A DNA stretch of 63,599 nt, filler included, from Folioceros fuciformis (lineage: Eukaryota), in NCBI GenBank assembly GCA_049999805.1. It is 7 parts of 7 records of this genome, joined end to end, with 100 filler letters (N's around TTAATTAATTAA, not from the genome) between each part and the next. Parts side by side here need not be neighbours in the genome. Positions count along the whole stretch, not along the records: positions 40,155 to 48,227 come from JBNGIO010006111.1; 6 more parts are not named here. One strand, written 5' to 3'. The notes under the pieces are model-generated. The model was not told the origin of the DNA. It ran no database searches and worked only from the letters and a program-made list of their open reading frames with translations. Positions 1-61,190 of this stretch are shown piece after piece (position 1 is the stretch's first letter; each line of letters begins with the position of its first letter). Made by a program: the position numbers and the translations under genes.

Positions 1-1038
1 ACCTTCAACGGGGGCAGGGATAGGGGAAACAGGAGCAGGACCTTCAACAGCGGGAGAAGGGGCCAGGGGTCCGGGAGCGGGTGCGGGGGCGAAGAGGGCA
101 GGAGGAATGAGCACGGAGTCAATGGCGTAGATGGCTGCGGGATTCTTATCCGTGACAGTGGTCTGCACTGTAGCGTTGTTGATGCCGCCCTGAAGCACAA
201 CCTGGCCTGCAATGGTGCTGACGAAGAGACTGTAGGTGGAAATGGTAGTCTCCTCTCCGTTATCCTGCTGCAGCTGGGCTTGAGACAGATACTTGGACAG
301 GACGTGGAACTTGAGCACAAGCGTCGCCTGGTCGGCAGTGAGAGTAGCAAGCGTGCTCTGCACCTCGTTGAAGGCTAAATCAGTGGGGGCAAAGAGCGTC
401 AACCCTGTAGCAGCAAGCTCCTGCACCGCAGACTCGAGGCTATACTGCTTGAGCAGCGAGAGGAGCGTGTTGTACTTGCCTCCTTGGACCAAAGCCTCGG
501 TGATGTTCGTAAGGGCCGCCTGCTGCAGCCCGACGGGGAAGATGAAATTGCTGACCTGGAAGACCGAGATGTTGTAGCCCTGCTGGGTGATGTTGGTGAC
601 GATGGTGGCGTTGGGAGTATTTCCCCCAGGAACTCCCAGACCCACAGAGCCATCAGCCTGGTCCGTGATGTTGATATACCCGAAGAGGCCCTGAGCCCGC
701 CCTGTACTCTGGTAGAGAGTCGCCACCTCGGTCGTCTTGTTGGGGAGGTTCCGGATTTCGTCGTAAGAGAAGGCTTGCAACGCGGAGTGGTAGCGCAGAA
801 CGTCCGCCACCTCAGAGCTGGTCAAGCCTGAGCCAGAGAGCCCGCCAACCCCACCGTTGCTCACCACGAAGAGCGCCACCGAGTTTTGCTGGTCGATCTC
901 GGACGCAACCTCCGTACTGTTCAGCAGCTGAACGAAGGATGAAAAGTCGGGAAACGGCTGCAGCACCTGCAACACGTCCAGGGCGGACACCGCCCCGAGC
1001 AGCAGCGCAGCGACTAGGAGCTGCACCTGGAACCTCAT
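1..1038 (-). CDS. Fasciclin-like arabinogalactan protein (FLA); 3' end runs off the window
   Basis: Manual translation from ATG at 1038: signal peptide MRFQVQLLVAALLLGAVSA, then FAS1 motifs (DVLRYH, ATLYQSTGRA, TLFAPTDLAF, LVLKFHVL, IYAIDSVLIP) and an AP-rich tail. Not in the ORF track because there is no stop in the window. Likely 5'UTR intron upstream. Confidence 0.9.
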   Translation of the reverse strand, partial: MRFQVQLLVAALLLGAVSALDVLQVLQPFPDFSSFVQLLNSTEVASEIDQQNSVALFVVSNGGVGGLSGSGLTSSEVADVLRYHSALQAFSYDEIRNLPNKTTEVATLYQSTGRAQGLFGYINITDQADGSVGLGVPGGNTPNATIVTNITQQGYNISVFQVSNFIFPVGLQQAALTNITEALVQGGKYNTLLSLLKQYSLESAVQELAATGLTLFAPTDLAFNEVQSTLATLTADQATLVLKFHVLSKYLSQAQLQQDNGEETTISTYSLFVSTIAGQVVLQGGINNATVQTTVTDKNPAAIYAIDSVLIPPALFAPAPAPGPLAPSPAVEGPAPVSPIPAPVEG

Positions 1039-4000
1039 TTTGCTGCGAGCAGAGACACAAGCAAACGAGAGGCGATCCGTCAGTCCCCCTCCCCGGAGAG
1101 ACCTCCAGGCAAACTCAGTGAGTAAAAACAATCAATTCGGGACAATGCAGGCACCCTGCAGCTCCTGGAGACATGCAGGACAGAAGTGAGCAGAGCAGGC
1201 AGAGAGGGGCAGAGTGAGCCGGGGGCAGGGCAACGGATCTCACACTAGAGTAGGGTTGGATCTGGCGATGCAGCTAGCTCCCGCGGAGCCCCGATCGCCG
1301 CCTGCGAGAGGAAGCGAGGCAGCGTGCTTTCTTGCGCGGCGCGTCGAAGGAGCTGGAGAAAAAAGAGAAGAAGCAGGTAGACTGATGTTGCGAGCGCGGA
1401 GGGGCTTAAGAAGCGCGGGGAGCTTGAGTGGTACCATTGGCGGAGGCTAACCGGCGGTCGCGGACCGCCCGTCGCTACGTCTTGCGGTCCGTTGGCCTGA
1501 CACCTGGTGCCTGCTGTTTATTAGCTGTGCTGTGTTTTGGCTTGGCAGGCCCGTGTCCCGCAAAATTACACCCTTCAACGTCTATCCGCCGCACATTTAC
1601 GATACCTACCGCGCCGCGTCCATGGCATTATCGGGCGGGATGCAAGTGTTGTGTTTCGACACATCTGATTTTACTCCTGATTTATGCCGATTCTCGAGGA
1701 TGCAAACTGGCCACGCCTGGCAAAGCCATCCCCATGCATGCACCCGGTGGCTCCGGGACTCCATTCTACTACACACCAGAACGTCGTCTTCAAGCCTTGC
1801 CATGCCTTGCAGGGCTCGCTAGCTCTGCTTTGATTTGGCAAGTAGAGATAGAGAGAGAGAAAGGGAGTGTTAGTGTAAGTAATGAGAGAGTGTGGAAACG
1901 TTCGTGGAGGGGGTGAAGTGAAGGCCAGGACACTCCCCTGCCTGCCAGATGAGACAAGGCAGACTAGACTACAGATACATAGACCTAGGACAGCACAGTC
2001 CATCCATGTTCCAGGAGGGCGGGCGAGGAGGAGGAGGAGGAGGAGGACGAGGACGAGGACGAGGACGAGGATTTGAGTTTGAGGAGTGTCAGAAGGCAGA
2101 ACGGTAATGTGGGTAGCGGCCATGTGCGCAGTGCGGTGCAGTGCAGTGCAGTGCGAGGCAGAGAAGGGAAGGGCACGGCAAGGGGAGGCAGGTCTGAGGC
2201 AGGTCTGCAACGGGCTCCGTGGCCATGGAGCCAGCCTGGGTTGGGTTGGGTTGGGCTGTGCCTGCTTTGTTGACGGGCCACGGTCACAATAGTGTCCCAC
2301 CACCACGCAGGGTGCCGGGCCGGGTCCGGGGCCGGGGCCTGCGCCTGTGTCCAGGCCGGTTTCGGTGCCGGTATCTCTGGGGACTGTGTTCGGTATTCGA
2401 TCATTGCCGGGGGCCTGCATTCACTCGCAGGCCGGAGCCCGGGTCTGTGATCGCGCCGGAACGCCTCCCCTATTAACTCCACTCGACCGTTGCTAGCCTG
2501 GCCTGGCCGGCCGAAAGATGAGAGTTCCATGCACGATGCACATGGCTGGCTGGAGCGCTGTAAAGCACCCTACGTACATACACCTTGGTGGAGTGTGCAC
2601 ATTACCATTACCGCTCAGTACGACTACTACTGCAAGCTTCTTTCTTCTTATTTCACACTCCAGCCTACTGCGCAGGCTGCGCCCAACATGCTACGGCTAT
2701 TGCTCTCTCGTGAGCAGTCGAGTGGAGTGGAGTGGAGTTGCAGGGAGTCGAGTCGAGTCGTGTCGGATCGTCCCTTCATGCAGCAGGCATCTCGGCTTCT
2801 CGAGACTGCGCGTATGAAGGAGGATCCTGCCAATGCCGTGGCCGTTGCCGTTTCCGTTGCATCGCTGTCTTCCGTGGCTGTTCTCCCACGGGGCGTGTTC
2901 CAAAGTTGGTTTCACCCACGAACAGGTGTGGTGAGTGAGGTCAGCCGGCAGTGGGTGTTGCAGAATCCTGAAGTGGACGAGACGAGACGAGACGAGACGT
3001 CCGTCTCCTGATAAGTTAGGGAGAGAAACAGAGAGCAGACTGGGCCAGGCCAGACCCAGCGAAAGGTAAAAGAAGAGAAAGGGAAACTGCTTCTTTTAAG
3101 TATGCATGCATGTACACACATTACATGGGATGCATTCAGGTATGAAGCGACGAGGCCTCGGGAAACGAGGGGTCCTGGACAAGGCAGACGTCTGCTGAAT
3201 CAGCGCCTAGACACACATTCCTCGATTGGACAAGAAGCCGCCCCTCAAGGCCGCACCTCATGTGCGTGCAGAAGTCGAGATCATGGATGCCAGTGATCAG
3301 ATCAGGTTGCGGCAGCGCCTCCCATGTATCCCTTTGCATACGTATCACAAGACAGCCACACCCAGCCCAGGCTCTCAGCACACGGATGAAACAGCTGGAT
3401 TCAAGGAAAGGAAAGTCCCTGGAGCCATGCCCCCCACCCTTCGTGGTGACTCTCTGGTTGCAGAGCAGCCAAGCCTCCTCTGACTTGCCGGGAAACGCCG
3501 TACTCAATAGTGTCACACAGCTTGTGGACTGGAACCATAATGGATGTACATGTGTGCACCTCTTCTGCACCTCCGGTGATCGCCCAATTTACGGATGTCC
3601 AGATCATCACACATCCACATTTACAATCTGTGAACAGCTGTGAGGTCACAGGCATGTCAGGCGTGACAACTTGTATCAACCTTCCATCACTTTCTTCCCA
3701 TATGCCTCTCTACATCTAATGTGCAATCGATACCAACCATGCCATCCCCCTGTCATCCAGAGTGAACTCACCAGCCAACTGTGTCTTCAGGTGGGAAGGA
3801 AACGCCACCGCTTAGAGATCAATCTACTCATTCCATAAAACAGACAACAAACTAAGCACGCCCCGCTCCAACAAAACGAAACCCTACGAGCGTGCTCTGC
3901 CCCTGTCCGTACACGAGGAAAATGTACACAAGTACTCGACCGTAGGCAGCTCTATATCTCACGAATCCCGAGTCAATAATCAGAAACGCATAGGCCAGTG

Positions 4001-10200: not shown

Positions 10201-13200
10201 AAACCAATTTTTCACTTTGAAATACCTGGCCTGCAGCTTGAACAAGGAGTTTTTGTTCGTGACATTGACAAGTTCTTCATCACATAGCCCACGTCTATAC
10301 GCAACAACTGCCAGTGTTGGATCCCTCTTCTCACAGTACTTACCAACGACACGGGAATCATAAAACGGATTGGTAGTAAGGAAGTGCTCAGGATTGGTAT
10401 TTGTATCAATAATAATCTTTCCAAGAGCATTGTGCACATGCACATCTTGGCTGCCCTCACTAACAAGATGCTCCAGAAACTGCGTAAGAAGCCTCAGCCG
10501 ATTTCTGAAAAAACAATCCAAGGATGTTTGAACAATGTTTACCATTTCTCGTTACCTGAAACATGGAATCAACAGTGCAGTTGGAGCATCCTATAATCAC
10601 TTACCGTTTCTCACACTCCTCAACAAGAGGTTCAACTGGGAGAAGGGACCTCACAGAGAGGATCAAACCCTTGATGAAATCCTCAGAGCAGTCATCATCC
10701 AGAAGCTGCCCAACAACCAGAGGCGCATTGCTTGGGTTCACCTGTGGGAATCATTTTCCAGAAGGCCAACTTCAGATTCCCAAGGTCAAGGACCCCAAGA
10801 ACACATGGACAACTGACCCGAAACCTTTAAAGCAGAAAAGCACCAGCATTGCCAGTAAATAGCTCACCTTCTGGACGTAACCCTCAATATAACGCAACAT
10901 GTTGTTCGTGTACAAATAATGGGTAAGATCAGGAACAAACCCAAAGCGGTCACAAACATTGATCAAAGGGCGGGCATCAGGAAGTTTTGCCTCCATCAAG
11001 AAATTTTTGGTCCGTTCAGCATCATAGAAGTTAGATTCTCGGGTTACACGCTCCACCTCCTTGATCTGCCCAGTCTTGGCTGCTGCTTCAATGTACTTGA
11101 AGTGGATCTCAGGGTCCTCGCTGAAAGGGTCACAGCCAGTCAGGACAGATTGCCAGAACTGCTAAGTACCCACCACAGCTGAACTCTTTTCTGGAAAACT
11201 ATCCCCTACCTTGAGCTCAAGAACGCCCCGAGGAAAAAGTAAAGGCCTTCATAAGACTTAAACTGCTCAAATAACTTCACACAGTTGTCTACTCCAAGCT
11301 GTTCTGAGTATTCCTTTGATACCTGCACTAAAAAGTCCCCTCAGCGACGCATTGGCAGAAACCATCTCAAGGAACTTCTTAGAAGGAGGCCCCTCTTACC
11401 TGGACAATGATTTGGAGATTCCCTCTCATGTTCACCAGGAGAAGCTCCTTCATGCAATCCAGAGCCCACTCCCTTGACATAGTTCCAAAGAACTCAACCA
11501 GTTGCTGTATTCAGAGAGTCACCACATTAGTTATTGACACAAATCTGAGAAAAAAAAAAAGAGAGACCGGTGGTGATTTACCTGAGGCTCGATGGCATGT
11601 GTATTTACAACAACACGCTTGATGTCGATCAGGTCAGTATAGTGCTGCAAGAAACGAGTGTCACAGGTTGCTCAAGTGTAAACCGAATACCAGCATCAGA
11701 GATAAAAAGGCAGACAGGTTTGACTTCCACTGACCTGCAGGGCACGCATGTACAGACCAGCTTTCTCACAAAGTTGAGCAATACGTGGTCGATCATAATG
11801 GCTGAACATGCCATTTGCCAAAATAGCATCTGCGACATTCGGGAAGGTGACGAGATTGATCTCCAACACCTAATTTAAGACATTTCAGACTGTGTCAGAC
11901 AACGTAGCACGACAGCAACTCCCATCAATAGAGGCAACTGATACAAGCGTACCTTAGTCTGAAGCACAGCATGCTCTGGAAGATTCGGCTTCAAGACATC
12001 TAGCAAGAAAGAAGTTGCCTCACGAATCATGTTTCTCTGTAAAATAAGAGTCGTTTGAAACCAATTATCATGCGCATGTTAAAGCCCATCCAAGTACAGG
12101 CCATCACTTTCGATCAGCAGAGACATCACCTTGCACAATCCTCAAAGCCAGAAGTTTGTTGTTTTCCTAGTCATGCAAAGAGGAAAACCAATGGACTCAC
12201 CTGCAGAAACAAGTCTGTGATTGTGTTGTAATCTAGAGGAGGTCCGCCTTCCATTTGAGACATCATCAACGCAAAATTGACAGCACCCTGCATCCAGGAA
12301 CAATGACAGACCTCTAACCAACTTTCCAATGTTGGCACTTGCAGAAAGGATCCTCAAATCCACAAAACAGACTGCAAACCTGAGGGTCTGTTCGCAAGAT
12401 TGATTGAAGTAAAAAAAGATAATCCGGTGTGTACCCAACCTGCATACCAAAGGTAGTCTTGTATTAGAACAAAATGAAGTGTCAGCAGGCTCGTTTTAGT
12501 GCACTGCTAGAAAACGTGAGTCGGACCTGCTTCGAGTATATGAGAATTTTGTCAAACTCCCGGCGTTCAGCAAAAGCTGCTACCACTTTCGGTGTTGCTC
12601 TTGCCTTAATGTAGATCTTAAGTGCCATGTCATTGTCGACTGTCTGCATTATTTGCACATAGAAAGAAAAACCAAAAATCAAGATTTTCCAAATGTCAAA
12701 GTTGTGACAACAGTAGAACTCTACTTGATGAGCATCACTTACTNNNNNNNNNNNNNNNNNNNNNNNNNNNNNNNNNNNNNNNNNNNNNNNNNNNNNNNNN
12801 NNNNNNNNNNNNNNNNNNNNNNNNNNNNNNNNNNNNNNNNNNNAACAGTAGAACTCTACTTGATGAGCATCACTTACTTTGACAAGATCTCCCAGCTCCT
12901 CACTGCACTCCAGCTTATCTTCCGCTAGCCAGTTCTCCAGCAAATTCTTCTTATTTTGATTGACCACTAACCGTGACAGTTCCAGTGACTCGAAGGCATT
13001 TAACTTGCCCTTCAGCAAAAGAGTTGCAAAGTACTGCAGCAGAGGAGATGTCTGCCCGGGTTGAACTGGAACACTCTGAAACGAGCCATCTACACAAGGT
13101 GAGCATACGGCTAACACAAACTGATCCAGGACACAGAGGTTCAATGCTGCATCCAGACCTGAAACTTGGCAACAGTCTCAGGCTTCCGCAAAATCCCCTG

Positions 13201-17720: not shown

Positions 17721-19071
17721 AGGTGGAACATACTCGGGACAGTCCCAGCGATCAATATACTCAAGACAGTCCCCAATTCTGCCATACTCGAGAGTGTCCC
17801 ACCTACAATTGAGTGGTGGACGACTCGAGCTAAGGAAGAGTGTTTACTGAATAAAAGGAGCATATGGACACAATATTCTAGTATGGATATTTGCAAAATA
17901 TGCTAGTATAGAAATTCTCTATTTTGAGGACATAAGTGATTAGCTCATTATCAGCCAAGTAGACATGCTAAATAAGCATGTTAGTTGCAAACCGTAAGTT
18001 AGAGGACGAGTTGACCAAACCCCGCTGCAGGCTAGTTAGGTACAGCTGCAAAAGCGTGGGAGAAGGGCGCCAGGGATAGATGCGTTGCAAAATGATGGAA
18101 ATGGCAGGGCGCAAATGTGGCTGAGAGGTGTGCAAATGTGGCTGGAAGGCGCGCATGAAGATGGCTTCGCACTGAAGCAAAGATAAGTGGACGATTACGG
18201 CTTTTACAAGCAGTTGTTAAAGTAGCGCCTAAGAGCATTGCACATAGGGGACTAATCCCAAGATCCTTCTTGTTGAAAATGCAATCTGGAATGCAATCTT
18301 GAATGGAAGCTTAGATTCAAAGCATGTTTTTGAGCGACGGGATGTTGTGTGCAGGTGTTGGTGTGATTTTCCAACTCGTAATCACGCAAACTGCGTGATC
18401 CTCTTCAATGCTGGAGAGCATGCTGCAAGCAATGCTGTTCACTTGTTCACTTCATCAACTACTGTCAATCTGGAGCATGGCATGCAAGAGCTAGGGGCGA
18501 TTTAGATTGGTGGAGGCTGGCTGGCTAGGCAACTACAGCAAGGCGGCATCACCAACACACCCTATCGTGCTAGCAGCAGCAACAGTATTCCACTTGTAGC
18601 AAGCTATCCCATCCTTCTAGAGCTCATAGCATCCGCCACAGAGGTTGGTTGCCTTTGATTCACATACCAAATTATTTGCCTCATTGAGACAAATCTATTG
18701 GTATAACTTTTGTTCAATTTTGAGTGAGATCCAGGAACTGAATGCCTTTGAGGATTCGGTCATCTAGGGTTTTAGTGGGGGAATGTTGGCTATTTGCAGC
18801 CAACGCCCCTCTTGTTGCAGCATAGGGGCTAGGACTCTTATGGACACTGGCACTTCAGGTCTTTCACTACATGTAGCCTAGCTCTTAGCTTAGCTTTTAG
18901 ACTTGCTCCCTACAGGTCCTTTTTGTAGCTGTAACTTTGACATTTCACAGTTTTGAACTTGTCTGGTTTTTTGGCTTTAGCAGCAAGCCTGACTGTAGTG
19001 CTAGCTTGCCTTCTTTTCCCCCCTGAACAAAGGACTCATATTTTGCTACAATTGTGGTGGGACAGATGGAG

Positions 19072-19285
19072 TATACTGGGGACAGTCCCAATCTTGGTCT
19101 TAGCCATACTCGCGACAGTCCCAGTCTTGGTCTTGGCCATACTTGGGACACTCCCAGTCTTAGTCTTGGCCATACTCGGGATAGTCCCGGTCTTGGTCTT
19201 GGCCATACTCGGGATAGTCCCGGTCTTGGTCTTGGCCATACTCGGGATAGTCCCGGTCTTGGTCTTGGCCATACTCGGAACAGTC
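19072..19285. repeat. 33-bp minisatellite, about 6.5 copies (CATACTCGGGATAGTCCCGGTCTTGGTCTTGGC)
   Basis: Direct tandem repeat; the three copies at 19171-19269 are identical. Confidence 0.95.
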
Positions 19286-19329
19286 TCACCCCCGGCATAG
19301 TAGTCTATTTGGAGCACCACCATGCCCAA

Positions 19330-27953: not shown

Positions 27954-28263
27954 CCCGTCTTCAGGCCGCCTCCCGCGACATCACATCTATGCACGCCTGT
28001 TACGGAAATCGTCCATGTCCGGGGGCTATGAAGTAGCCCAACCACCATGGTCCTGGCCTTGTAAATGTAAATAGCCTTGTATTTAATTAAAACTATTTTT
28101 TATGAATGATAATACTTTATTATTATTNNNNNNNNNNNNNNNNNNNNNNNNNNNNNNNNNNNNNNNNNNNNNNNNNNNNNNNNNNNNNNNNNNNNNNNNN
28201 NNNNNNNNNNNNNNNNNNNNNNNNNNNTCATGAGTTTGATTGAATCAGTGATGATGTTTCTAA

Positions 28264-29314: not shown

Positions 29315-29611
29315 NNNNNNNNNNNNNNNNNNNNNNNNNNNNNNNNNNNNNNNNNNNNTTAATTAATTAANNNNNNNNNNNNNNNNNNNNNNNNNNNNNN
29401 NNNNNNNNNNNNNNTATTATTATCGTGTATATGCCTGACCTTAAATATTATCTTGCATACACATGTTATACAGTTTAAAGGCTGCAGTCATGGACAGTTT
29501 GTGAACCTTATAAGGAGACTAGCCCTTGCGATCAAGCTTGTTGAAATTACAAATCCCTTGACAAACTTTGTGATTAACAATGAGAAAGGCCTACCCACCC
29601 GCAAAGCTGAA

Positions 29612-32598: not shown

Positions 32599-35183
32599 AT
32601 GTACAACGGGGTGGGATTGCAGACCCCGCGGGGCTCAGGGACCAATGGATATATCCAGACCAACAAGTTCTTCGTGCGGGTGCGGCCTCTCAACTCAGAG
32701 CCTCAGGAGTTTCAAAATGGTCAAGGCACCGGAGGGGTTTCTCGCAAAGCCAATGTGGAGATTCTGGAGCACGACAGGAAGAGGCAGATCCAGCTGAAGC
32801 TCACGCTGCTGGAGGACACGCTCTTGGAGCAAGGATACTCTGAGGTGGAGATTTTGGAGAGAGTGGAGGCTGCCCGTAAGTCTTTGGAGGCTGCAGCAAC
32901 AGCTTTGAATGGCGCCGATGAGCCCGTCAGGTTTGTCTACGTTTCTTCCTGCATCTTTGTTTGATAGGTTACGGTTCGGTGAGGTTGCTTTCACGTGTGT
33001 CAATGTGTGCTGGTCCTGTATGTGTCTGGTGGGGGATGGAATCTAGTCACTGAACAACCTTGTCCCTCTAAGTACTCATGAGAATCTTGACCTGGTTTGA
33101 TAGTGTAAGACAGCAATTTAATTTATCGGAGGCACACTGCAGTGTTAGTTTTAGGTCATAGTTCTTCTGCAGGCTGTTGCTGAGAGGACGTGGAGCAGAG
33201 ATGAATTTCTCTTTCCGGAGGCATTGCTCGCGTCGAGCTGGACGGCCCCGTTCTGCCTGGAACTCTCAGCCTTCATACACACAGCGGCAAATCATGATGT
33301 GGACTAATAATCTGCCTTAGTCCACCTGTGTATTGAACGATTATTGGTAGCGCAGTGGAATTTGTATTTTTTCTGGTGAGACACAGCAGAGAGCAGTCCA
33401 ATCTATTGTACATACAGCTCAGTAAGTCCTTGAGGTCATAGTCCCTGGGTAGACTGATGGTTGCAAGATGTGTTTTGAGGATGTTCCTTTGTACTGATGC
33501 AGTGCTCTCTTTTAGGTTGATGGTCTCGTTTGTATGGGGTTTTCAGCCTGCCTACGTGTAGAATTTGCTTACATCCTTTTGGTCTGCGGGATGTACAGGT
33601 TTTCTGAGACAGAGACGCATCAAATTGCTGCCAAGAAGGAGCGTCAACTGCAAACTATGAAGTCAGCTCTGGGCATTGATGATGCGAAAGAAGGAGAGGC
33701 ATTTGACCGAGAACTGCAGGAGCGTCGGAAGCAAGAGAGAATAATGGAAAGAGAGGAAAAGGAGGCAAAACGCAGGGAAGCGCAGCTTGAATTTGACAGG
33801 CAGCTGAAGGAAAAGGAGAAAGAGTTGGAGAAACTGAAAAGAAAGCAAGAGAAAGAGGAGCGCAAGCAGAAGCAACTGGAGGAGGAAAAGCTTCGGGAAG
33901 CCAAGAAGAAGCAAAAGGAGGAGGAGAAACAAGAAAGGCGGAATGCAAGGCGCAAGAGGGAGGAAGAAGTCCTTGAAGAGAAACGAAACAGGAGACGGGA
34001 GAAGCGCAAGGAAGAAGAGTATGCGTCAGAGGATGGGAAAGATCCTCGTACCAGGAAGAAAGAGGCTCGTAGAAGAGAAGATTCTGATGATGACCGCCAG
34101 AAGCCTAGCAGAAGACGAGTGCGGCAGAAGGGAGGAGATTCGGAGGAAGAGCGAGAAAAGTCTAGCAGGAGACGAGAGAAGTACAAGGAAGACGTGGAGG
34201 AAGGTAGAGACAAGCCTGGCAGAAGACGAGAGAGGCACAAGCACAAGGAAGATTTGGAGGATGAGCAAGAGAAAACCAGCAGGAGACGAGAGAAGCGCAA
34301 GGAAGAATTGGAGGAAGAGAGAGAGAAGCCTAGCAGGAGGCAAGAGTGGCACAAGGAAGATTCAGAGGATGAGCGGCAGAAGCTTGACAGGGGAGGAGAC
34401 AGGCTGAAGGCTGAAGATTCAGAGGAAGAGAGAGAGAAGCCTAGTAGGAGGCAAGACAGGCACGATGGAGATTCAGAGGATGAACGGCAGAAGTCTAGCA
34501 GGGAAAGGGACAGGCAGAAGCTAGAAGATCTAGCGGATGAGAGACAAATGCATACCAGGAGAAGGGACAGGCATAAGGAAGATCCGGGTGATGATGGGAA
34601 AAGACCTGGCAGGGGGAGGGACGTGCGTAAAGGAGATGGTTCAGAGGACGAGAGAGAACAGCCTATTAGGAGAAGGAATGTCCACAAGGCAGATAATTCT
34701 ACGGAGGTCGAGAGAGAAAAGGCCAGTAGAAGGGACAGGCAAAAAGTAGACGATTCGGAGGGAGAGGAAGGAAAGCCTAGCAGACGGAAAGACAAGCTCA
34801 AGGGAGACGACAGATCCGATGAGGAGAAAGAACATCCCAGTAGGAAAAGAGACAGGCACAGGGGAGAAGACTCAGAGGATGAGAGAGAGAGGTCTGGCAA
34901 GAGACGTGCAAGGAACAAAGGAAGAGATTCATCGGATGAAGAGAAAGAACACCCCAGCAGGAAAAGAGAGAGGCATAGGCGAGAAGACTCAGAGGATGAC
35001 AGAGAGAGGTTTGTCAAGAGAAGCGTGAGGTACAAGGAAAGAGACTCATCCGACGAGGAGAAATGGACTTCCGGAAGGAGAAGAGACATGCATAAGGATG
35101 GAGGCTCATCAGATGAGGAGAGACAGAAACCAAGTAAGAGAGTTGAGCAGCGCAGAAGACAGAGGGATGCGGAACATCGGTGA
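32599..35183 (+). CDS. CWC21: Pre-mRNA splicing factor CWC21/cwf21 (SRRM2-like) with long charged RE/RD repeat tail; exons 32599-32930 and 33599-35183
   Basis: Diagnostic N-terminus [22 protein letters not shown]; cwf21 domain [23 protein letters not shown]. Confidence 0.93.
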
Positions 35184-39950: not shown

Positions 39951-40154
39951 GAAACCAGGAACGAGTCTAGCAAGAAAGAGGGGGGGCGAAAGAGCACAGC
40001 GGAGACGAGCCCAGGAGGCAGCAGGCCCGCGCAGTCAGAGGACAGAGCCGGTATNNNNNNNNNNNNNNNNNNNNNNNNNNNNNNNNNNNNNNNNNNNNTT
40101 AATTAATTAANNNNNNNNNNNNNNNNNNNNNNNNNNNNNNNNNNNNNNNNNNNN

Positions 40155-41080
40155 GCCGAGTTGCAAATTGAGATCGCAGGGTGTGTGATTAAAAAGGTAC
40201 CTCTGGACACAGGGTCTAGAGTGAACATCATGATTGAAGACATGGCCCGGAAGCTGGGGTTGGAGATTGAGCACACCGCCAAAGTTTTGCGATTGGCAGA
40301 CATGTCGAAAATGGCACCCGTTGGGAAGATCCTTGGAGTTTTGACTCACATCGGCACCATTCCATATCTTATGGATTATGTGGTGATTAAGCAGAAGGCC
40401 CTTGGATATAAAGTATTGATTGGAAGAACCTGGATGTATGGTGCCAGATGTACCTTTGGGTGGGGGCGAAAGGAGGTAGGTTTTAAGCCGCTGGATTGGG
40501 ACCCAAAGACCAAGGAAGGAAGGATCTGTTTGTCGTGGAGCAAGGACATGTACACTAGAGAGACCTCGTCTGAAATAGATGGATACACCTCAGCCAAAGA
40601 AACGGACGGACAAGCAGATGAGGACAAGAGGTTTCCTTTTGCACACATCTCTTGGTCGGAGGAGGAGAAGGATTATCAGCGCCACCTACCCCTGGTCAGC
40701 TGCTACAGAATCATGGCAGATGGTGAGAATGTGGAGTCAGAGTCGGAGGAAAGGAAGCCGACTACCGCGGTAGTTGAAGGGGAACGGGAGGTAGCCGTCT
40801 CAACTACTTCAGTAGCCCAAGGGGAACAGAAGGTAGCCCACTCGACTACCGAGGTAGTCGAGTCAGTAAAATCAGAAGAGGAGGAACCAAAGGAGAAGCC
40901 GCCTAAGTTGGATGAGACACGAGAGGCCGTCATGAAAATTACCTCCGAAGAGCTCTTCCGTGAGTGGGGGATGAGGGAAGCAGAACCCCAAAGACCTGAG
41001 GAGGGATTTGGCGTCACCTCTGCGCTAGTGGAACGAGAGTGGGTGCAGGCAGACGAGATCAAGGATGTGGAGGTCCTGCC
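40155..41080 (+). mobile_element. Ty3/Gypsy-type retrotransposon fragment (aspartic protease and linker), interrupted by a Copia insertion
   Basis: VPLDTGSRVNIM...LRLADM...YKVLIGRTWM retropepsin motifs; includes a 42-nt (14-aa) repeat TTxVxxGExxVAxS. Confidence 0.8.
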
Positions 41081-44000
41081 TGATGAGAATCAATAGCTCT
41101 TAGGCAGAAGAGATACAATGCAATTGAATTAAGAAAGTAAAGAGTACAAGCCTATACATAGGCTAGGTGGTTAGGTGGTTAGGTGGTTACAACCATAAGT
41201 TGTTGTAACCACTAGGTAGTTGCAACTAATATAACAACTAACTACCTAGAGCAACTAATTAAGTAACTACTTTATGCCCTAGATAATGTTTAAGTAAGGT
41301 GCCCTAATGAATAGTGCCCTAACCTAGATATATTTCATCACTCCCACTCACTATGAATGTAGGGGTGAGAGCTAGCTTCAAAAAGAGACCTAAAACATGC
41401 TTAAGCTCCCACTTAATGAGAAGTTATAAGCTTAAAAGAATTAAACCTGATAGCTGAAAGTAAATCTATACCAAAATTGTTTTGTATTTGTTAACCGTGC
41501 ACGCATAGGGGGCAAGTATGCAGAGTTTCATCAAAACTCCGCATTTAAGCACCCCAAGCTCAGATCAGTACTGAGTTGGGGGACTTGTGAGTGTGCCTTT
41601 TGAAAAATAAAGGCCTAAAAAGTAATAGGCCATGAATAAGTTGAAACCAGTATACTCTGGCATTAACCGCCTCCGTCCCCGTCCACCAATTGGCTGTCTT
41701 AAATGCCCCTATCCCTGTCCACCGATTGGTGGACAACCAGGGATAGGTGCGGCCGTTAGACCGGCTGGGCCCCCCTACATGGGGCACGCCCATCTTTATC
41801 GGGCACCATAAGCAGGCAGAGATAGCGCATCCCCGAGGTTCCTCCTCAAAGCGCACCCTTCGGGCATGGAGGCTCTGCCCTAAGCGCCTTGGCCGTGCGG
41901 GAGCGCCCCCTTCCTTACGGGGGAATCCACTACTCAAATGCTGCAAATACAAATGCTGCAAATACAAATGGCCGCGACTCAAATGCAGATGTTTCTCCAG
42001 AATATTCTCCAAATGCAAATGTTTCTTCTCTAGATTATTCTCCTCCAACCAGCCCTTTTTATAAAATTAGTGAGAATGCCGAGGATGCCGATGCAGCGCT
42101 TCTGAATGATGAGGATTGGGACAACATCGGTATCGAAATTCGGACCAATAGAGCTGGATTTGCTGGTGCATATAGAGTTGAAAATCATGACTCACATATA
42201 GGCCCTCCTATCCTTAAAAGTGAGTTGTAAAAGCCCTTTTATTTGGTCTTGATGAGTTTATAATGCTTTGAATATTCTAATGTTGTTTTTGCCCTTTGTA
42301 GTTGAAGATGGTGCCATGGATGTAACCCCTTGTCAAAAACCTTCACCTCCTTCATCAAAGAGCCATAGTGAAGATCATAATGTACCAGAGATGCCCAATT
42401 CTTGTAGGCTCCGTGCTTCACTGCCTAGTTCACCGAATCCACCAAATGATGACAACCTTGAGGTGGAGTTTGATGAAGAGGTGCTCACCGCCAATTCGAT
42501 AAAGACCTCTCGCCAAGCAGTATGCGAGGGGAGCCCAAGTTGACCATGAGATGGGGGCTCCTCCAAGTAGTAAGATGTAGCTAGATACAGATTTTCGGCT
42601 GTCTGGGTCTCCACCATAATCAGCGTCAGCATATGCTCTTAACTTTAATTTGGATATGCCGTGTGAATGCTTATACATCAGTCCTGTGTGCATAGTGCCT
42701 TTGAGATACCTGAATATGCGTTTGACGCATTGCCAATGTTCTTCTAGGATTCTCCAAAAAATGTGAGACTGCACTAACTTCAAAAGATATCTCTGGTCTA
42801 GTGAAGTTGCTTAAGTATATTAATGTACCAACATCATGTCTGTATGGTACTGGTGACATTTCTTCTTTTTCAGCATTTGTCTTAGGGCTCATATCAGAAA
42901 TGAGCCGTGTGCCACTAGGGAATGGTGTGGCAGCAGGTTTAGCATCTTCAAGTCCAAACTTGGCTAAACTTTCTTTTATATATTTTGCTTGAACTAGGCT
43001 GATGGATTTATTACTTCTATCCCTTATAACATTGACGCCAAGGGCATAGGTTAGCTCTCCCAAGTCCGTCATTTCATAGTGACTTCTTAACCAAGCTTTA
43101 ACTTCCGCTAGGTGGGAGAGTGAAGATGATGCTAAGAATAGGTCATCCACATAAAGTAAGAGGTAAAGTGTATGTTGTTTTGACTTTAAGATATACATAC
43201 TTGCATCAGCTTTGCTTTGAATAAAGCCATACTTCATTAGCTTGTCATGTATATCTTTGTTCCATTCCTTTCCAGATTGCTTTAGGCCATAGAGACCTTT
43301 GATTAGTCTAAATACCATATCTTCTTTGCCTTTGACCTCATAACCCTTAGATTGTTTCATGTATATTTCTTTTTGAATGCGTCCATGTAAATAAGCAGTT
43401 TTGACATCCATCATGTGAAGGTGTAAATCATGTTGAGCGGTCAAGGCAATTATCATTCTTAAGAAAGAAAATTTTGCTACTAGAGCATAAGTAGCCCAAG
43501 GTATGTGATCTAAACCCGGTATTTGGGTAAAACCTCTGGCTACTAGTCTTGCCTTATATCTCTCAATGGAACCATCACCCTTGCGTTTAATTTTGAATAT
43601 TCATTTACTCCCAACTATTTTTCTCCCTTTGGGTGGTTTGACTAATTCCCATGTAGAGTTCTTAACTAGGGAGTCATACTCAGAGTCCACTACGGCTTTC
43701 CATAAGTCTTTCTCAGGAGAGGAAAAAGCTTGATTCAAGGTTAGTGGCTCTTCAGGGTCAATAGTGGCTTTATAAACAGCTTGATAAAAATGGGAGAAAG
43801 GTGAGGAGGGATCATCAAAAGTAGTAAGGTATCCCAGAGGTGGTTCCTTCCATCCTACAGGTCCATAGATAGTAGGTCTAGATCTTAGGTTGTACCTTGG
43901 TGCAAGTTGTACATCTTTGTTGACAACTTGTTCTGAAGTGTTATCGTCTTCTTCAAAAGCTGGTTCATGTATAGGAGGAACCGGCTCATCTTCATCCAGA

Positions 44001-44660
44001 TACTCAGGCTTAGAAAGTTCATTGTCCGGGATATCAGGAAGATCTTCAAGGTGTTGAGGAATTTCCATATCTGGATCTGGAGTAGTTGGTCGTCTTGGAG
44101 AAGATGGCTCCTCCTCCTCCTGCAATATAGGTGCAACCGGAGGAGAGGAAGGGGTGGAATGTAGGGTAATAAATTCGTCATTATCAAAAGACGAAGGCAT
44201 ATGATGATCGTCAAGAACGAAAACAGGGGAATCCACTGAAGGAGATAATATAGGAGACTCATGAAAAGTAACGCTGAGGGCATATATGAGTCGCCTGGTA
44301 ACTAGATCAAATAATTTGTATCCTTTGATACCTTCGGTATAACCAATAAAGGTATACTTGGCAGCCTTGTCATCTAACTTTTTGCGCTATGATTTAGAAT
44401 ATAAACATATGTCGTACAGCCAAATACCCGAAGGTGATCGATGGAAGGTTTTCTGCTAGTGAATGCTTCATAAGGTGTCATACCTTTAACCATTGAGGTT
44501 GGAAGTCGATTAATGATGTAGGTTGCTGTTATCATTGCTTCTACCCAATATGGTTTAGATAACCTTGAAGGCATAGATTCTTATTTTTGGCTACACCATT
44601 TTGCTGGGGTGTATAGACCACCGTGAGTTGTTGAGCTATACCTTATGCTCGACAAAAATC
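41081..44660 (-). mobile_element. Ty1/Copia element 1 (degenerate INT-RT-partial RNaseH) with 3' LTR 41081-41340 and PPT 41341-41348
   Basis: MDVKTAYLHG, LYGLKQSG, LLYVDDL, YADADY, VYTPQQNGVA. LTR bounded by TGATGA...TCATCA; purine tract adjacent on the minus strand. Confidence 0.9.
41826..42543 (+). other. Putative spliced antisense accessory ORF inside Copia 1 (intron 42220-42301)
   Basis: 82-nt GTGAGT...TTCTAAT...TTTGTAG intron joins ORF 41889-42219 in frame to ORF 42302-42543 (ILK|IEDGAMD). Confidence 0.5.
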
Positions 44661-47600
44661 TGAAACAGTAAATAACTTAAATAGGTCCAGTCATTAGGTT
44701 AGTTAACTTAATTAAGACGAAACCCTAACACGACAGGTAATGTCGTTGTAACCGTTCACGGAGTCCTGAACACACACAAGGTGCGTTCGCGCACTCGCAA
44801 AAAATAAAATCGTCTCATGGTATCAGAGCCATGGATCGAGTAGCCTGCCCCGTTTGCAATCGCACCACCTGCAAGAATCCTATTTCCATCTCGGAATTCG
44901 GGTCTCTTGTTTTTTTTTGATTAATTTACGTTGGCCAACGGGTGCGCCTGCAGGGGTTTGGGAGATGCTGCACAAATGCTGCTCTCCCAAGGAGGACAGA
45001 TCGTAGCAAAGTTTTGATCTTCTCTTGGACAGAGCACGCCAGCAGAAGCTCTTCTCTTCTTTATGTAGAACCTGCAAGTGGAGCACAAGAATTAGCACAC
45101 AGATGAACTCTAGGAGCCCTTCTTGGAGGAATGTAGTGCAGGTTCCTTGTGCACCATGCCTGGATCACGGAGAAGAGAGCGCTTGCTCAGGCGTGCAATA
45201 AGAGAGGCAGCAAGAGCTGCCTACTATTGGAGGTCTGAGAGAGAGTATCAAGAACCGCTGTCGCATGGAAACAGATGGCAGCAAGTTTGGATTAGACTTT
45301 GCATAATCCTAGAGCTGATGGCGACAAACCTAGAACAAGGAGTTCCTGCAGGGGAGGACTACGACTGGACCCAAGTTGACATTTCAGATATCTACCTGTG
45401 AAGTGAAGATGTCTCCCCCTTCTGTCTCCAAGTTTGTCATCAACCTTCCTTCAACACCTGATCACGTTTTTCAGGTCATCCTATTTAAGCTAGACACCCT
45501 TTTTAAACAGCAACCATTGTCACCAACTCTCAACTACGTCTACACCTATGCATGTTATATAATTCATAAAATCCATTGAGTACTGTTTTGCTGAAATGAT
45601 CAATCTTGAAGTCACCCTAGAAGTAGAGGGCCCATTAGACAAAGATTCCTCCTGCAAGGTCTGGTTTCACCCAATTTAGTGTGTCCATCCAGTCCATCCC
45701 AGTGTCATGGCAGGTCAAGGTCAACAATCAAATGTGCCGACTGCCCTAGCCAAAGAGGACAGATTTGATGGCACTAACTTCAACCTATGGAAGTTTAGAA
45801 TGGAAGAGTTGTTGAAGTCAAGGAACCTGTGGGAGTTCGTCGGTGCAGCAATTCCAACACCTGAACCACCAACAACTGCTGCAGCCGCCGGCATTGCAGC
45901 ATGGAAGGCTTCGAATCAGCAAGCACGAAGCACTCTCACCATGAGCGTAAAGAGCTCACACATTGCCACTTTGATGGAGTCCATCACATCTGCAGCTGCA
46001 TTGTGGCAACAATTGTTAGAGGTGTACGATGCATCAGACCTCATGCTAAAGACCCACACACTAAAGTCCTTTGTGGGGTTAAGAATGGCTGAAACCGACA
46101 ATGTAGCAGAATTTGTGCTCACATGGAGGAGCTGGCAGACCAAATTCCTAGCACTAGGTTTCAAGCTTGAAGAAGAAGTGATGGCAGTCATTCTACTGTC
46201 TCACCTGCCTGAAAGTTGGACAAATGTTGTGCAGTCCCTGCAAAACGTAGCAGCAATCACGGTTAACCGCGTGATTTCCACAATGCTCACTGAGGAGAAC
46301 CGCCGCAAGATGGCGACATCCTCCATATCGGCAGGAGACAAAGCCCTGTTCACCAATAAGTTTGGAGGTGGCAGAGGTAGAGGCAGAGGCAGACCTGCCT
46401 TTAGAGGCAGGGGACGAGGTCGAGGCTTCCCATCCCGACCTTCCTCATTCAATGGCAGCAGACCCAAAGCACCATGTGGATTTTGTGGCATACCAAATCA
46501 CACATGGGAGGTCTGCAGGAAGAGGTTGGCAAATGAGTCAGGACGCAGCCATTCAGGTGGCAATCTGGCTGTCACTATGAAAAAATATTCTAAAGCGTTC
46601 ACAACATGTGTAAATGATGGGCCAGATCGAAGTACACATGCAGGAAGTGATTCAGCATTGGTGGTTACCTGTTTTGCAACCAAGGCACAACATGCGTGGT
46701 ACATAGATTCGGGGGCCTCGCAGCATATGACACCGCATCACTCTTACTTCACTAGCCTGCAGCCCATGGAAGGTGAGAGATTTGTCTGCTTAGGAGATGA
46801 CTCTACACATAAGATAGAAGGTCATGGAACAATTCAGCTTGATTTGGAACCAGATCAACATCTGGAGATACCAGATGTTTTATACGTACCAGGGCTTGCC
46901 AAAAACCTGGTATCGGTGAGGAAGATTGACGAATCTGGATGTTACATCTGCTTTGGTGGTAGGAGATGTGTAGTAGAAACACTAGATGGTAAACTGATGG
47001 CCACTGGAGGTCTGCGATCTGATGACCTCTACCATCTGGATGTGAAGAAGGATCATGTTACCGCTGCAACAAGCACAGCTCACATGGTCAGGCCATCGCT
47101 CACATACTTGTGGCACCTTAGGCTAGGACATTTGAACTTCCAAAAGCTAGTCAGAATGCATCAAAATAAGCTTGTAGATGGTCTGAAGTTGGATACATTG
47201 TCCGATTTCGGAGTATGCGATGCATGTGTCATTGGGAAGCATCACCGCAGTGCATTCCCAACTGAACCAGCTGAGAGAGCCACCAGAGTGCTCGGGCTGG
47301 TACACAGCGATGTGTGTGGGCCACTTCCCACTTCTCTTGGAGACAAAATTTATTTTATTACCTTCATTGATGATTTCTCAAGGTTCATTGTTGTCTACCA
47401 CATGCGGCTGAAGTCTTCCACCCTGGAATGCTTCAAGGAGTATAAGGCGTGGGCAGAAACACAAACTGAACAATCATTGCAAGCTCTCCGATCAGACAAT
47501 GGGGGAGAATATATATCCGGTGAGTTCCAAGCCTACTGCACACAGCATGGTATAGCTAGACAGCTAACCAATGCTAGAACTCCTCAGCAAAACGGAGTTG

Positions 47601-48227
47601 CAGAAAATAAAAACAAGGCCTTGGAAACTTCAGCATCTAGCATGCTGTCATATGCGAAACTTCCCAAACGTTATTGGGCTGAGGCAGTCGCGTATGCTAC
47701 TTACATTCAAAACCGGATAGAGCATTTAGCTGTACAAGGCAAAACACCATTTGAAGTGTGGACTAGAGTAAAACCTGACATTTCCCACATGAGAGTGTTT
47801 GGAGCTCCAGTGTATGTGCATGTACACAAGGACCTGAGAAAGAAGTTTGAGCCTAAGTCAACCTCATGCATATTCATTGGATTCACAAATGGCATAAAAG
47901 GGTACAAGGTAATAGACAGACGTACCAAAAGAGTAATGCACTCAAGAGAAGGGTTGAGTCACATGACTCAGTGGGAGTTGCTGTCCCTGACTCACCTCAA
48001 GGGTCAGACGAAGAGCAAGAAGAAGACTCTTATGTGCTAGCAGACCCAGTGCCTGCAGCACCAGCACCAATCCCACCAGTAGTAGTACCAGCTGTACAAC
48101 AAATACCTTCCACGCCAAGCATTCAAACACCAATCAGGCCATCGCAGAGTGAGGATGAGCCCATAATATTTGGCGATTTCGATATGGAAGGAGTGGTCTC
48201 ACCTGGGGACTTGTTTGCTACACCTTC
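44661..48227 (+). mobile_element. Ty1/Copia element 2 nested in Copia 1: 5' LTR 44661-44817, PBS 44818-44829, gag-PR-INT 45707-48040; rest in gap
   Basis: TGAAAC...GTCTCA LTR; TGGTATCAGAGC tRNA-iMet PBS; FDGTNFNLWK, CX2CX4HX4C, WYIDSGAS, WHLRLGH, LRSDNGGEY. Frameshift near 47945. Confidence 0.92.
45156..45401 (+). CDS. Small unknown ORF (81 aa) in the Copia 2 leader
   Basis: ACCATG start; MPGSRRRERLLRRAIREAARAAYYW...DWTQVDISDIYL*; lies between PBS and gag. Confidence 0.45.
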   Translation: MPGSRRRERLLRRAIREAARAAYYWRSEREYQEPLSHGNRWQQVWIRLCIILELMATNLEQGVPAGEDYDWTQVDISDIYL

Positions 48228-48327
48228 NNNNNNNNNNNNNNNNNNNNNNNNNNNNNNNNNNNNNNNNNNNNTTAATTAATTAANNNNNNNNNNNNNNNNN
48301 NNNNNNNNNNNNNNNNNNNNNNNNNNN

Positions 48328-52654: not shown

Positions 52655-52754
52655 NNNNNNNNNNNNNNNNNNNNNNNNNNNNNNNNNNNNNNNNNNNNTT
52701 AATTAATTAANNNNNNNNNNNNNNNNNNNNNNNNNNNNNNNNNNNNNNNNNNNN

Positions 52755-56873: not shown

Positions 56874-57065
56874 TCTACAGGTCCAATAGATGAAAATTTA
56901 GCTAGCGTTCAAATTTCATCTTGAAAATTCTAAAGACTTTTGAAAACGCTATGATGTCTATAGTCNNNNNNNNNNNNNNNNNNNNNNNNNNNNNNNNNNN
57001 NNNNNNNNNTTAATTAATTAANNNNNNNNNNNNNNNNNNNNNNNNNNNNNNNNNNNNNNNNNNNN

Positions 57066-61088: not shown

Positions 61089-61190
61089 NNNNNNNNNNNN
61101 NNNNNNNNNNNNNNNNNNNNNNNNNNNNNNNNTTAATTAATTAANNNNNNNNNNNNNNNNNNNNNNNNNNNNNNNNNNNNNNNNNNNNCA

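Follow-up and report, generated by a model that had tools for sequence, protein, structure and literature searches.

A candidate accessory reading frame between the primer-binding site and gag of a Ty1/copia retrotransposon in Folioceros fuciformis

Do small open reading frames (ORFs) that lie after the primer-binding site (PBS) but before gag of a Ty1/copia retrotransposon encode proteins, or are they chance openings in a long non-coding leader? The question is raised by an element in a 63,599-nt stretch of DNA from Folioceros fuciformis (assembly GCA_049999805.1), referred to here as the window. The original prediction, made from the sequence alone, placed three tandem small ORFs (A, B and C) in the leader of this element and read them as accessory genes translated in the manner of a badnavirus. 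Its positions for the PBS, the ATG at 44831, the TGA at 44918, the end of that frame at 45106, ORF B, ORF C and the gag ATG are exact. All three frames are present as described, yet taken alone they do not exceed chance. As an interpretation the prediction is partly supported: it probably holds for ORF B, and it is unsupported for ORF A, ORF C and badnavirus-like translation. Comparisons at the sequence level suggest that ORF B is probably a genuine, conserved small accessory gene, shared by related Copia lineages between PBS and gag.

What is visible of the element is the 5' portion of a Ty1/copia retrotransposon: a 157-bp long terminal repeat (LTR), a tRNA-iMet PBS and an 876-nt leader (44831-45706; 889 nt counted with the PBS). 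The gag ATG is at 45707. The features needed at this point are:

44818..44831, plus strand: PBS of the tRNA-iMet 3'-end type, overlapping the first ATG with its final bases
45156..45401, plus strand: ORF B, 81 codons and stop, a candidate accessory protein (four relatives, alignment)
45266..45328, plus strand: island conserved in DNA, ORF B residues ~37-58, the best-conserved block of the protein (contig joints, depth, invariant columns)
45707..48040, plus strand: gag-pol (gag, protease, integrase) with Pfam domains; the frame stops before any reverse transcriptase (RT)

ORF B and its relatives

Relatives of ORF B are few and of uniform size. An exhaustive HMMER search of 1.84 billion representatives at E<=0.001, for which ORF B was the only query among the three small ORFs, returned three proteins, two of them full-length relatives. 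P0001 (79 amino acids (aa), E 2e-15) aligns query residues 1-79 with its own residues 1-78, and P0002 (85 aa, E 5e-11) is aligned from residue 1. The third, P0003 (4677 aa, E 1.6e-4), was rejected: it is a SprB-repeat/CHU_C protein of bacterial origin, and its match is a single chance stretch of 23 residues that occurs 24 times over. A search with a three-sequence profile identified four of 140 candidates as relatives (P0001, P0002, P0004 and P0005), all 79-85 aa long. These are singletons, each on a different assembled contig. All four were detected at full length, with no truncated pieces.

The window ORF B is 45-51% identical to the four relatives, and pairwise identities in the family are 45-75%; the window copy is the most deviant of the five. 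In the five-sequence alignment the first three residues are the same in all members, and four of the five ends differ by no more than one or two codons. The alignment contains one indel, of one residue. Twenty-six of the 79 ungapped columns are invariant, compared with 15.5 ± 2.5 if the differences were evenly spread (1 of 5000 randomisations). That the frame stays open in every relative found, its ends fixed and indels nearly absent at such divergence, points to a protein-coding gene and is hard to derive from neutral or RNA-level conservation. At residues 37 and 60 the window differs from all relatives, and the contigs compared with it carry the relatives' kind of residue.

The leader can also be followed in DNA. 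Contigs of four public runs (X1, X3, X4 and X6, from coded organisms A to D) were compared with positions 44400-46700 at a likeness of at least 80%. In organism A (X1) this copy is nearly unchanged, record 1 covering 44661-44918 and record 2 covering 44940-46069 with six differences. Organisms B, C and D contain a version about 92% identical that extends from the PBS into gag, for example in X3 record 9 (44815-44981), X3 record 11 (44993-45850; 64 differences, 17 gap letters) and X4 record 18 (45019-45850). The long leader is a family feature, present from PBS into gag in four coded organisms. Because it occurs in the contigs of all four, the possibility that the leader of the original prediction was a one-off captured fragment is refuted.

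All X1 contigs differ from the window at 44801, 44998, 45183 and 45334. These are either strain or individual differences or assembly errors; the one at 45334 alters ORF B residue 60.

More diverged lineages, of higher depth, were observed in organisms C and D. At the same threshold these align only at the PBS, sometimes at the ORF B start (45121-45182), in the core island (45266-45328 or 45232-45328) and in gag from about 45787. In X4 record 20 the joints run from 44833 to 45266 and from 45328 to 45787 at depth 203; in X6 record 26 they run from 44829 to 45232 and from 45328 to 45787 at depth 124.1. Gag position 45787 corresponds to contig positions 983 and 1130 in these two records. The PBS-side matches in the diverged contigs are short (21-26 letters) and call for caution. 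Since the joints and the gag piece are equal in depth within each record, PBS, ORF B core and gag appear to lie on the same contigs. Contig depth peaks in the bin 45247-45323, and the island columns hold most of the invariant residues of the ORF B alignment.

The contig comparison listed 12 of 42 indels and 40 of 628 substitutions. Eight of the listed indels are in the leader and none is inside ORF B. Four of the nine listed ORF B substitutions are synonymous (expected share 0.246), as are five of 14 in gag. The original proposal of a Copia lineage with pre-gag accessory ORFs stands in the singular: ORF B has its four relatives of 79-85 aa with their ends kept, and ORF A and ORF C drop out. 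With the leader a family feature and ORF B conserved in its relatives, it is likely that a Copia lineage carries one accessory ORF before gag.

What kind of protein would ORF B encode? AlphaFold2, run with the five-sequence alignment, gave helices at residues 4-37 and 40-60 (mean predicted local distance difference test score 70, predicted template modelling score 0.34). Across the family, net charge is +6 to +7 over the first 20 residues and 0 to -5 over the last 20. The central hydrophobic stretch has a Kyte-Doolittle maximum of 1.02-1.58 over 19 residues, with charged residues within it; P0005, at 1.58, is borderline. ORF B is predicted to be a two-helix protein: its N-terminal helix is arginine-rich, its second helix is hydrophobic, and its tail is aromatic and for the most part acidic.

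Searches of known families and structures returned little. Pfam gave no family for member 1 and one hit at 0.12 in one of the five members; PDB sequences gave none at E<=10, and PHROGs nothing below 0.064. Foldseek, suggested at the outset as a check, found no significant match (best E 3.1 for viral and 4.9 for PDB entries). A wide fold search with VIA reached a best Z of 6.1 with generic helical hairpins, and the ESM Atlas held no usable match. Comparison by hhalign found no likeness between ORF B and the gag-pol of the same element (probability 0.13). A complex prediction of Gag (residues 1-230) with ORF B scored 0.02; it was run without controls and is evidence neither way. Queried with the ORF B alignment, viral contigs and prokaryote genome contigs each yielded no related locus.

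If it is made, the protein would act on the element's own RNA or particle, like the accessory small proteins of other retroelements. Our best guess at its function is that of a soluble nucleic-acid-binding or nuclear-targeting helper. A broader proposal, which we consider rather doubtful, is that ORF B founds a new family of pre-gag accessory proteins of about 80 residues in a plant-type Ty1/copia clade. Members would be arginine-rich two-helix factors that bind element RNA, steer RNA or particle to the nucleus, or counter host silencing; they would be made by non-scanning translation or from a spliced RNA, and would be the Copia counterpart of the small ORFs of the MDG1 group.

ORF A, ORF C and alternative readings of the leader

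The other two frames of the leader are:

44831..44920, plus strand: ORF A, first part, 29 codons to the TGA; the leader's first AUG, in strong context
44921..45106, plus strand: ORF A, second part in the frame originally proposed; unsupported as coding
45409..45579, plus strand: ORF C, 56 codons; unsupported, treated as non-coding leader

ORF A had been read as one 92-codon frame interrupted by a CGA>TGA change. The relatives show something else. In them the T-run before the TGA is shorter by 2 nt, a frame-changing difference (listed position 44910 for X3 and X4, 44916 for X6), and 1-nt deletions occur at 45056 and 45063 in X3 and X4. A 3-nt insertion behind 44992 in X6 is on a codon boundary and reads as a stop in the proposed frame. 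In that frame four of six listed substitutions are synonymous, which carries little weight given the frame changes. The second part of ORF A has no Pfam match. An accessory Cys/Zn-binding protein had also been suggested; the one candidate, a zf-C2HC_2 match to ORF A, is sub-threshold (E 0.077, 13 bits compared with a cutoff of 27) and leaves the suggestion unsupported. ORF A is at most an upstream short ORF and, as far as these comparisons indicate, no conserved gene.

ORF C begins 8 nt past the ORF B stop. It has no Pfam match, no relative in the window or in the loci searched, and only leads of 0.75-0.76 in the ESM Atlas, below any useful score; its proposal as a gene found no backing. One of its listed substitutions is synonymous and two are not. 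ORF C does not align in the diverged lineages apart from a patch at 45404-45458, which aligns in one diverged X1 contig (organism A). In X6 (organism D) depth stays high to about 45477, in contrast to the remainder of ORF C. One nucleotide at 45408, just before the ORF C ATG, is missing in X3, X4 and X6, which brings that ATG into frame with ORF B, past its stop. The stretch directly behind the ORF B stop may matter in some way. Both ORF A and ORF C look like frames that opened by chance or have decayed, in a leader that is structured and for the most part non-coding.

Translation of the leader was proposed to follow the leaky scanning of badnaviruses. In badnaviruses and tungroviruses this mode requires upstream ORFs free of AUGs and weak start contexts (PMC5902531). 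The Copia leader has neither. There are six ATGs between the ORF A ATG, which follows the PBS, and the ORF B ATG, and between the ORF B and gag ATGs there are seven more (45265, 45275, 45318, 45409, 45548, 45552 and 45596). The ORF A ATG is in a strong context, with G at -3 and G at +4; the ORF B ATG has A at -3. With six AUGs before ORF B and seven more before gag, plain leaky scanning cannot serve both ORFs, and this part of the prediction is unsupported. A pararetrovirus shunt calls for a short upstream ORF that stops shortly before a large, stable stem-loop; in this leader a long-range closing stem is predicted, and ORF A overlaps its 5' arm instead of stopping before it. ORF B might be expressed from the structured leader by reinitiation, shunting or internal entry, or from a separate or spliced transcript.

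Two splice-like motifs were noticed by eye. CAG|GTAATG, resembling a splice donor, is at 44734-44742 inside the LTR; such motifs are common by chance. A pyrimidine-rich tract at 45680-45702 ends in CAG 4 nt before the gag ATG, and may also be a chance motif. If the donor at 44734-44742 and the acceptor at 45702 were used, the AUG-rich leader, PBS and ORF B would be spliced out of the gag mRNA.

A number of observations weigh against ORF B as a gene. The length of the frame is within chance: in 2000 dinucleotide-preserving shuffles of the 889-nt leader, an ATG-initiated ORF of at least 81 codons arose in 284. A second ORF of at least 56 codons accompanied one of at least 81 codons in 81 of the 2000, and the sum of the top three ORF lengths was matched in 224; the minus strand of the leader itself has a 94-codon open frame. 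In a codon-usage frame test frame 0 was best throughout (ORF B 0.06, ORF C 0.15, gag 0.27-0.29 bits/codon), a result largely forced by stops in the other frames and so weighing on neither side. The four relatives were compared as protein sequence only, and the protein collection contains open frames only, which favours preserved ORFs. Mismatches in the alignment have a mean BLOSUM score of -0.54 to -0.20, compared with -0.55 to -0.48 for random one-base neighbours, a control that mostly removes the apparent signal of conservative replacement; only 15-18 of the 39-44 mismatches are reachable by one base change. The nine listed ORF B substitutions are split 3/3/3 over the codon positions, and one of them, found in X3 and a single X4 contig, replaces the invariant residue 2. 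With 12 of 42 indels listed, and 3 of the 17 gap letters of X3 record 11, indels within ORF B in close relatives are possible. At E<=10 a word-index protein search with ORF B alone retained none of its six candidates. As RNA the leader is more structured than its shuffles (z -3.8, 20 shuffles), with z -4.4 for 45186-45335 and z -2.4 for 45100-45340, so constraint at the DNA or RNA level could contribute to the conservation. The many upstream AUGs argue against efficient translation.

Much of this would also fit a leader that is non-coding throughout, ORF B included: a structured 5' untranslated region with cis signals (packaging, dimerisation), an enhancer, or control by upstream ORFs. The ORF B "family" would then be a conserved RNA or DNA element that happens to stay open in the few copies reaching a protein collection limited to open frames. 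ORF lengths within chance, six AUGs upstream of ORF B, mismatches no more conservative than one-base neighbours, a core island kept at 80% or more in DNA, the lack of a Pfam, PDB or fold match, and folding whose strongest local z lies over the first half of ORF B are all consistent with it. However, RNA z-scores of similar size occur inside pol, and folding is therefore not specific to this region. Beyond the island the DNA is unalignable at 80% and yet the protein alignment is still collinear; five sequences at 45-75% amino acid identity share the same start, nearly the same stop and one 1-residue indel, and all four relatives found are full length. We regard a wholly non-coding leader as unlikely.

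The full original model, in which A, B and C are tandem accessory genes served by leaky scanning or reinitiation as in badnaviruses, is very improbable. All three frames do exist, ORF C follows closely on ORF B, the patch behind the ORF B stop aligns in the diverged X1 contig with high X6 depth beside it, and most of the listed substitutions in the ORF A frame are synonymous. That frame is nevertheless broken among relatives 92% identical, by the loss of 2 nt from the T-run, the two single-nucleotide deletions and the stop-forming insertion. No relatives or domains were found for A or C, although the exhaustive search covered ORF B only, and the upstream ORFs contain AUGs, that of ORF A a strong one, contrary to what badnaviruses and tungroviruses require (PMC5902531). 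Slighter still is the chance that ORF B is a piece of a host gene transduced by one Copia lineage, its relatives being host genes or fragments of them. The extra ORFs that LTR retrotransposons carry are a heterogeneous set, believed to have come from many sources (PMC6317226), and the four relatives were compared as protein sequences only. Against this, all are stand-alone proteins of 79-85 aa, no longer protein contains the ORF B domain (no fused form among 8000 scored candidates, which is weak evidence), three organisms together have at least three lineages in which the core sits after the PBS and before gag, which is more than one or a few copies, and no second copy of ORF B was found in the window. 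A small accessory gene confined to ORF B remains the reading we favour.

The element and its surroundings

The outer features of the element and its contig are:

44661..44817, plus strand: 5' LTR, 157 bp, TG...CA (contig edges in X1 and X3/X4)
42674..44657, minus strand: older Copia element (RT and integrase C-terminus), host of the insertion (Pfam, contig breaks)
48228..48327, no strand: assembly linker N44-TTAATTAATTAA-N44, the end of the element's contig and not biology

The LTR is delimited by contigs. On its left, one X1 contig begins exactly at 44661, and other contigs of the upstream Copia fragment diverge past 44657/44662. On its right, the X3/X4 relatives match only from 44815; the LTRs of organisms B and C differ. 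The X1 start at 44661 and the start of the B and C matches at 44815 place the LTR at 44661-44817. No second copy of the 157-bp LTR and no direct repeats were found in the window. The 3' LTR is not seen because the contig of the element ends at 48227, after integrase. The PBS 12-mer TGGTATCAGAGC at 44818-44829 occurs once in the window and is, we assume, complementary to the 3' end of tRNA-iMet. The tRNA-Met 3' end is the primer for most plant Copia groups (Neumann 2019, PMC6317226).

Gag is of the Copia type (Retrotran_gag_2, E 3.5e-27; DUF4219 is under its cutoff), and the frame also contains Pol_BBD, gag_pre-integrs, rve and SH3_retrovirus. Directly after gag the order is protease barrel, gag_pre-integrs, rve and SH3_retrovirus, and the contig ends at 48227 before any RT. 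The gag-pol frame stops at 48038-48040, soon after the SH3-like domain of integrase, and another frame is open from 47866 to the contig end at 48227. This is either a frame break in the copy or an assembly error. The copy is probably dead or defective, because its pol frame is broken and its ORF B is the one most distant from the family majority.

The element is nested. An older Copia, which lies on the minus strand, is interrupted by it in the integrase region at about 44657-44661; RVT_2 (42674-43600) and SH3_retrovirus (43604-44574) were detected in that older element. In X1 the summed contig depth of the older Copia family is 260-550, compared with 32-56 for the leader. No other copy of the studied element is present in the window, as judged by a repeat search, by tblastn with the ORF B family (which matches only ORF B), and by blastn/tblastn of the leader and small ORFs. 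With gag as query, no relatives were found in viral contigs or in metagenome contigs, and the PBS-adjacent DNA pattern was absent from viral contigs. Rfam gave no match for the leader at E<=1 and none for the whole window at the gathering score. No tRNA genes were found in the window.

The window is built from separate contigs with N44-TTAATTAATTAA-N44 linkers between them. The element is on the 8,072-bp contig 40156-48227, which runs out after integrase. Linkers are at 29315-29414, 40055-40154, 48228-48327, 52655-52754, 56966-57065 and 61089-61188; the TTAATTAATTAA within them is a six-frame stop linker. Only partial linker matches (62-87%) occur at 12716-12866 and 28099-28250. Stretches on either side of a linker are not genomic neighbours, so any finding that spans one is an artefact. 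Other contigs contain a tandem array with a 33-nt unit at 19040-19303 (six overlapping 99-nt copies listed) and, at 33976-35032, a region of strong GC and AT skew in which purine-rich (AG-rich) repeats of 111/117 nt and 41 nt occur.

Comparison with known systems

How does this leader differ from that of an ordinary Ty1/copia element? A 20-mer composed of the PBS and CATGGATC was matched at eight metagenome loci, which share only the 20-mer with the studied element and otherwise represent Copia or other elements unrelated to it. In two of them, L003 and L008, a Copia polyprotein follows the 20-mer. In L008, an unrelated Copia, the 20-mer is at 152-171 and the gag-pol ORF (165..2984) starts at the ATG inside it. 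Gag thus begins at the PBS-adjacent ATG in that ordinary element, whereas the studied element has 876 nt, ORF B included, from this ATG to its gag. The block gives the impression of having been added there.

Badnaviruses and tungroviruses resemble the element in layout: a tRNA-Met primer site near the RNA start, the small ORFs I-II before the polyprotein, and a long structured leader with upstream ORFs (PMC5902531). They differ in that their ORFs are cleared of AUGs over about 900 nt and have weak starts (PMC5902531), unlike the Copia leader. No sequence or fold likeness was found between ORF B and their proteins. The studied element is an integrating LTR element with integrase, and badnaviruses are pararetroviruses.

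Most known cases of extra genes in LTR retrotransposons come from Ty3/gypsy elements or, in SIRE Copia elements, from the 3' side. Additional ORFs have been found upstream or downstream, mostly between pol and the 3' LTR (PMC7264820). The plant Ty3/gypsy Tekay chromoviruses and the Ogre/Tat elements have lineage-specific extra ORFs upstream of gag without known domains (PMC11728184). One Tekay extra ORF has a predicted nuclear localisation signal and helices, and is conserved in 500 of 523 sunflower Tekay group-2 elements (PMC11728184). The Tekay and Ogre 5' ORFs are about 400 aa or more and belong to Ty3/gypsy; ORF B has about 80 codons and belongs to Ty1/copia. A survey of plant elements counted extra ORFs only at 250 codons or more and, in the text available, singled out only the SIRE 3' ORF for Ty1/copia (PMC6317226). 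At that threshold an 80-codon 5' Copia ORF is invisible, and small 5' genes would go unseen in any survey so designed. In the literature searched no description of a small conserved 5' ORF in Ty1/copia was found; supplementary tables may list some.

The closest parallel in layout is the MDG1/412 group of Drosophila, which is Ty3/gypsy. Two small ORFs, sORF1 (about 110 aa) and sORF2 (about 70 aa), lie on the sense strand between the 5' LTR/leader and gag (PMC11952523). They are found throughout the lineage and on the full-length LTR-to-LTR transcript, and their peptides have been detected by mass spectrometry (PMC11952523; bioRxiv 10.1101/2020.09.24.311225). They were recently reported to be translated and tied to cell-to-cell transfer (PMC11952523), and they show that pre-gag small genes can be real and translated. 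ORF B is likewise a small sense ORF between 5' LTR and gag that is conserved in its lineage, a likeness of layout and not homology. The differences are several. MDG1/412 elements are insect Ty3/gypsy, whereas the present element is Ty1/copia, and the two were compared by description and not by sequence. sORF2 has an N-terminal myristoylation motif, MG (PMC11952523); none of the five ORF B family members starts with MG. The sORF2/FAST-like arrangement is a central transmembrane helix followed by a polybasic region, whereas ORF B has no clear membrane helix (maximum 1.0-1.58) and carries its basic cluster in the first 20 residues, not behind a hydrophobic helix. There is one supported small ORF in the Copia leader and there are two in MDG1/412. 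If ORF B is what it appears to be, it represents a new protein family without known relatives and raises a translation problem, since ORF B and gag are both behind many upstream AUGs. A conserved 80-codon ORF in a Copia leader would extend the theme of pre-gag small genes, seen in MDG1/412, to the other superfamily and to a plant-type lineage.

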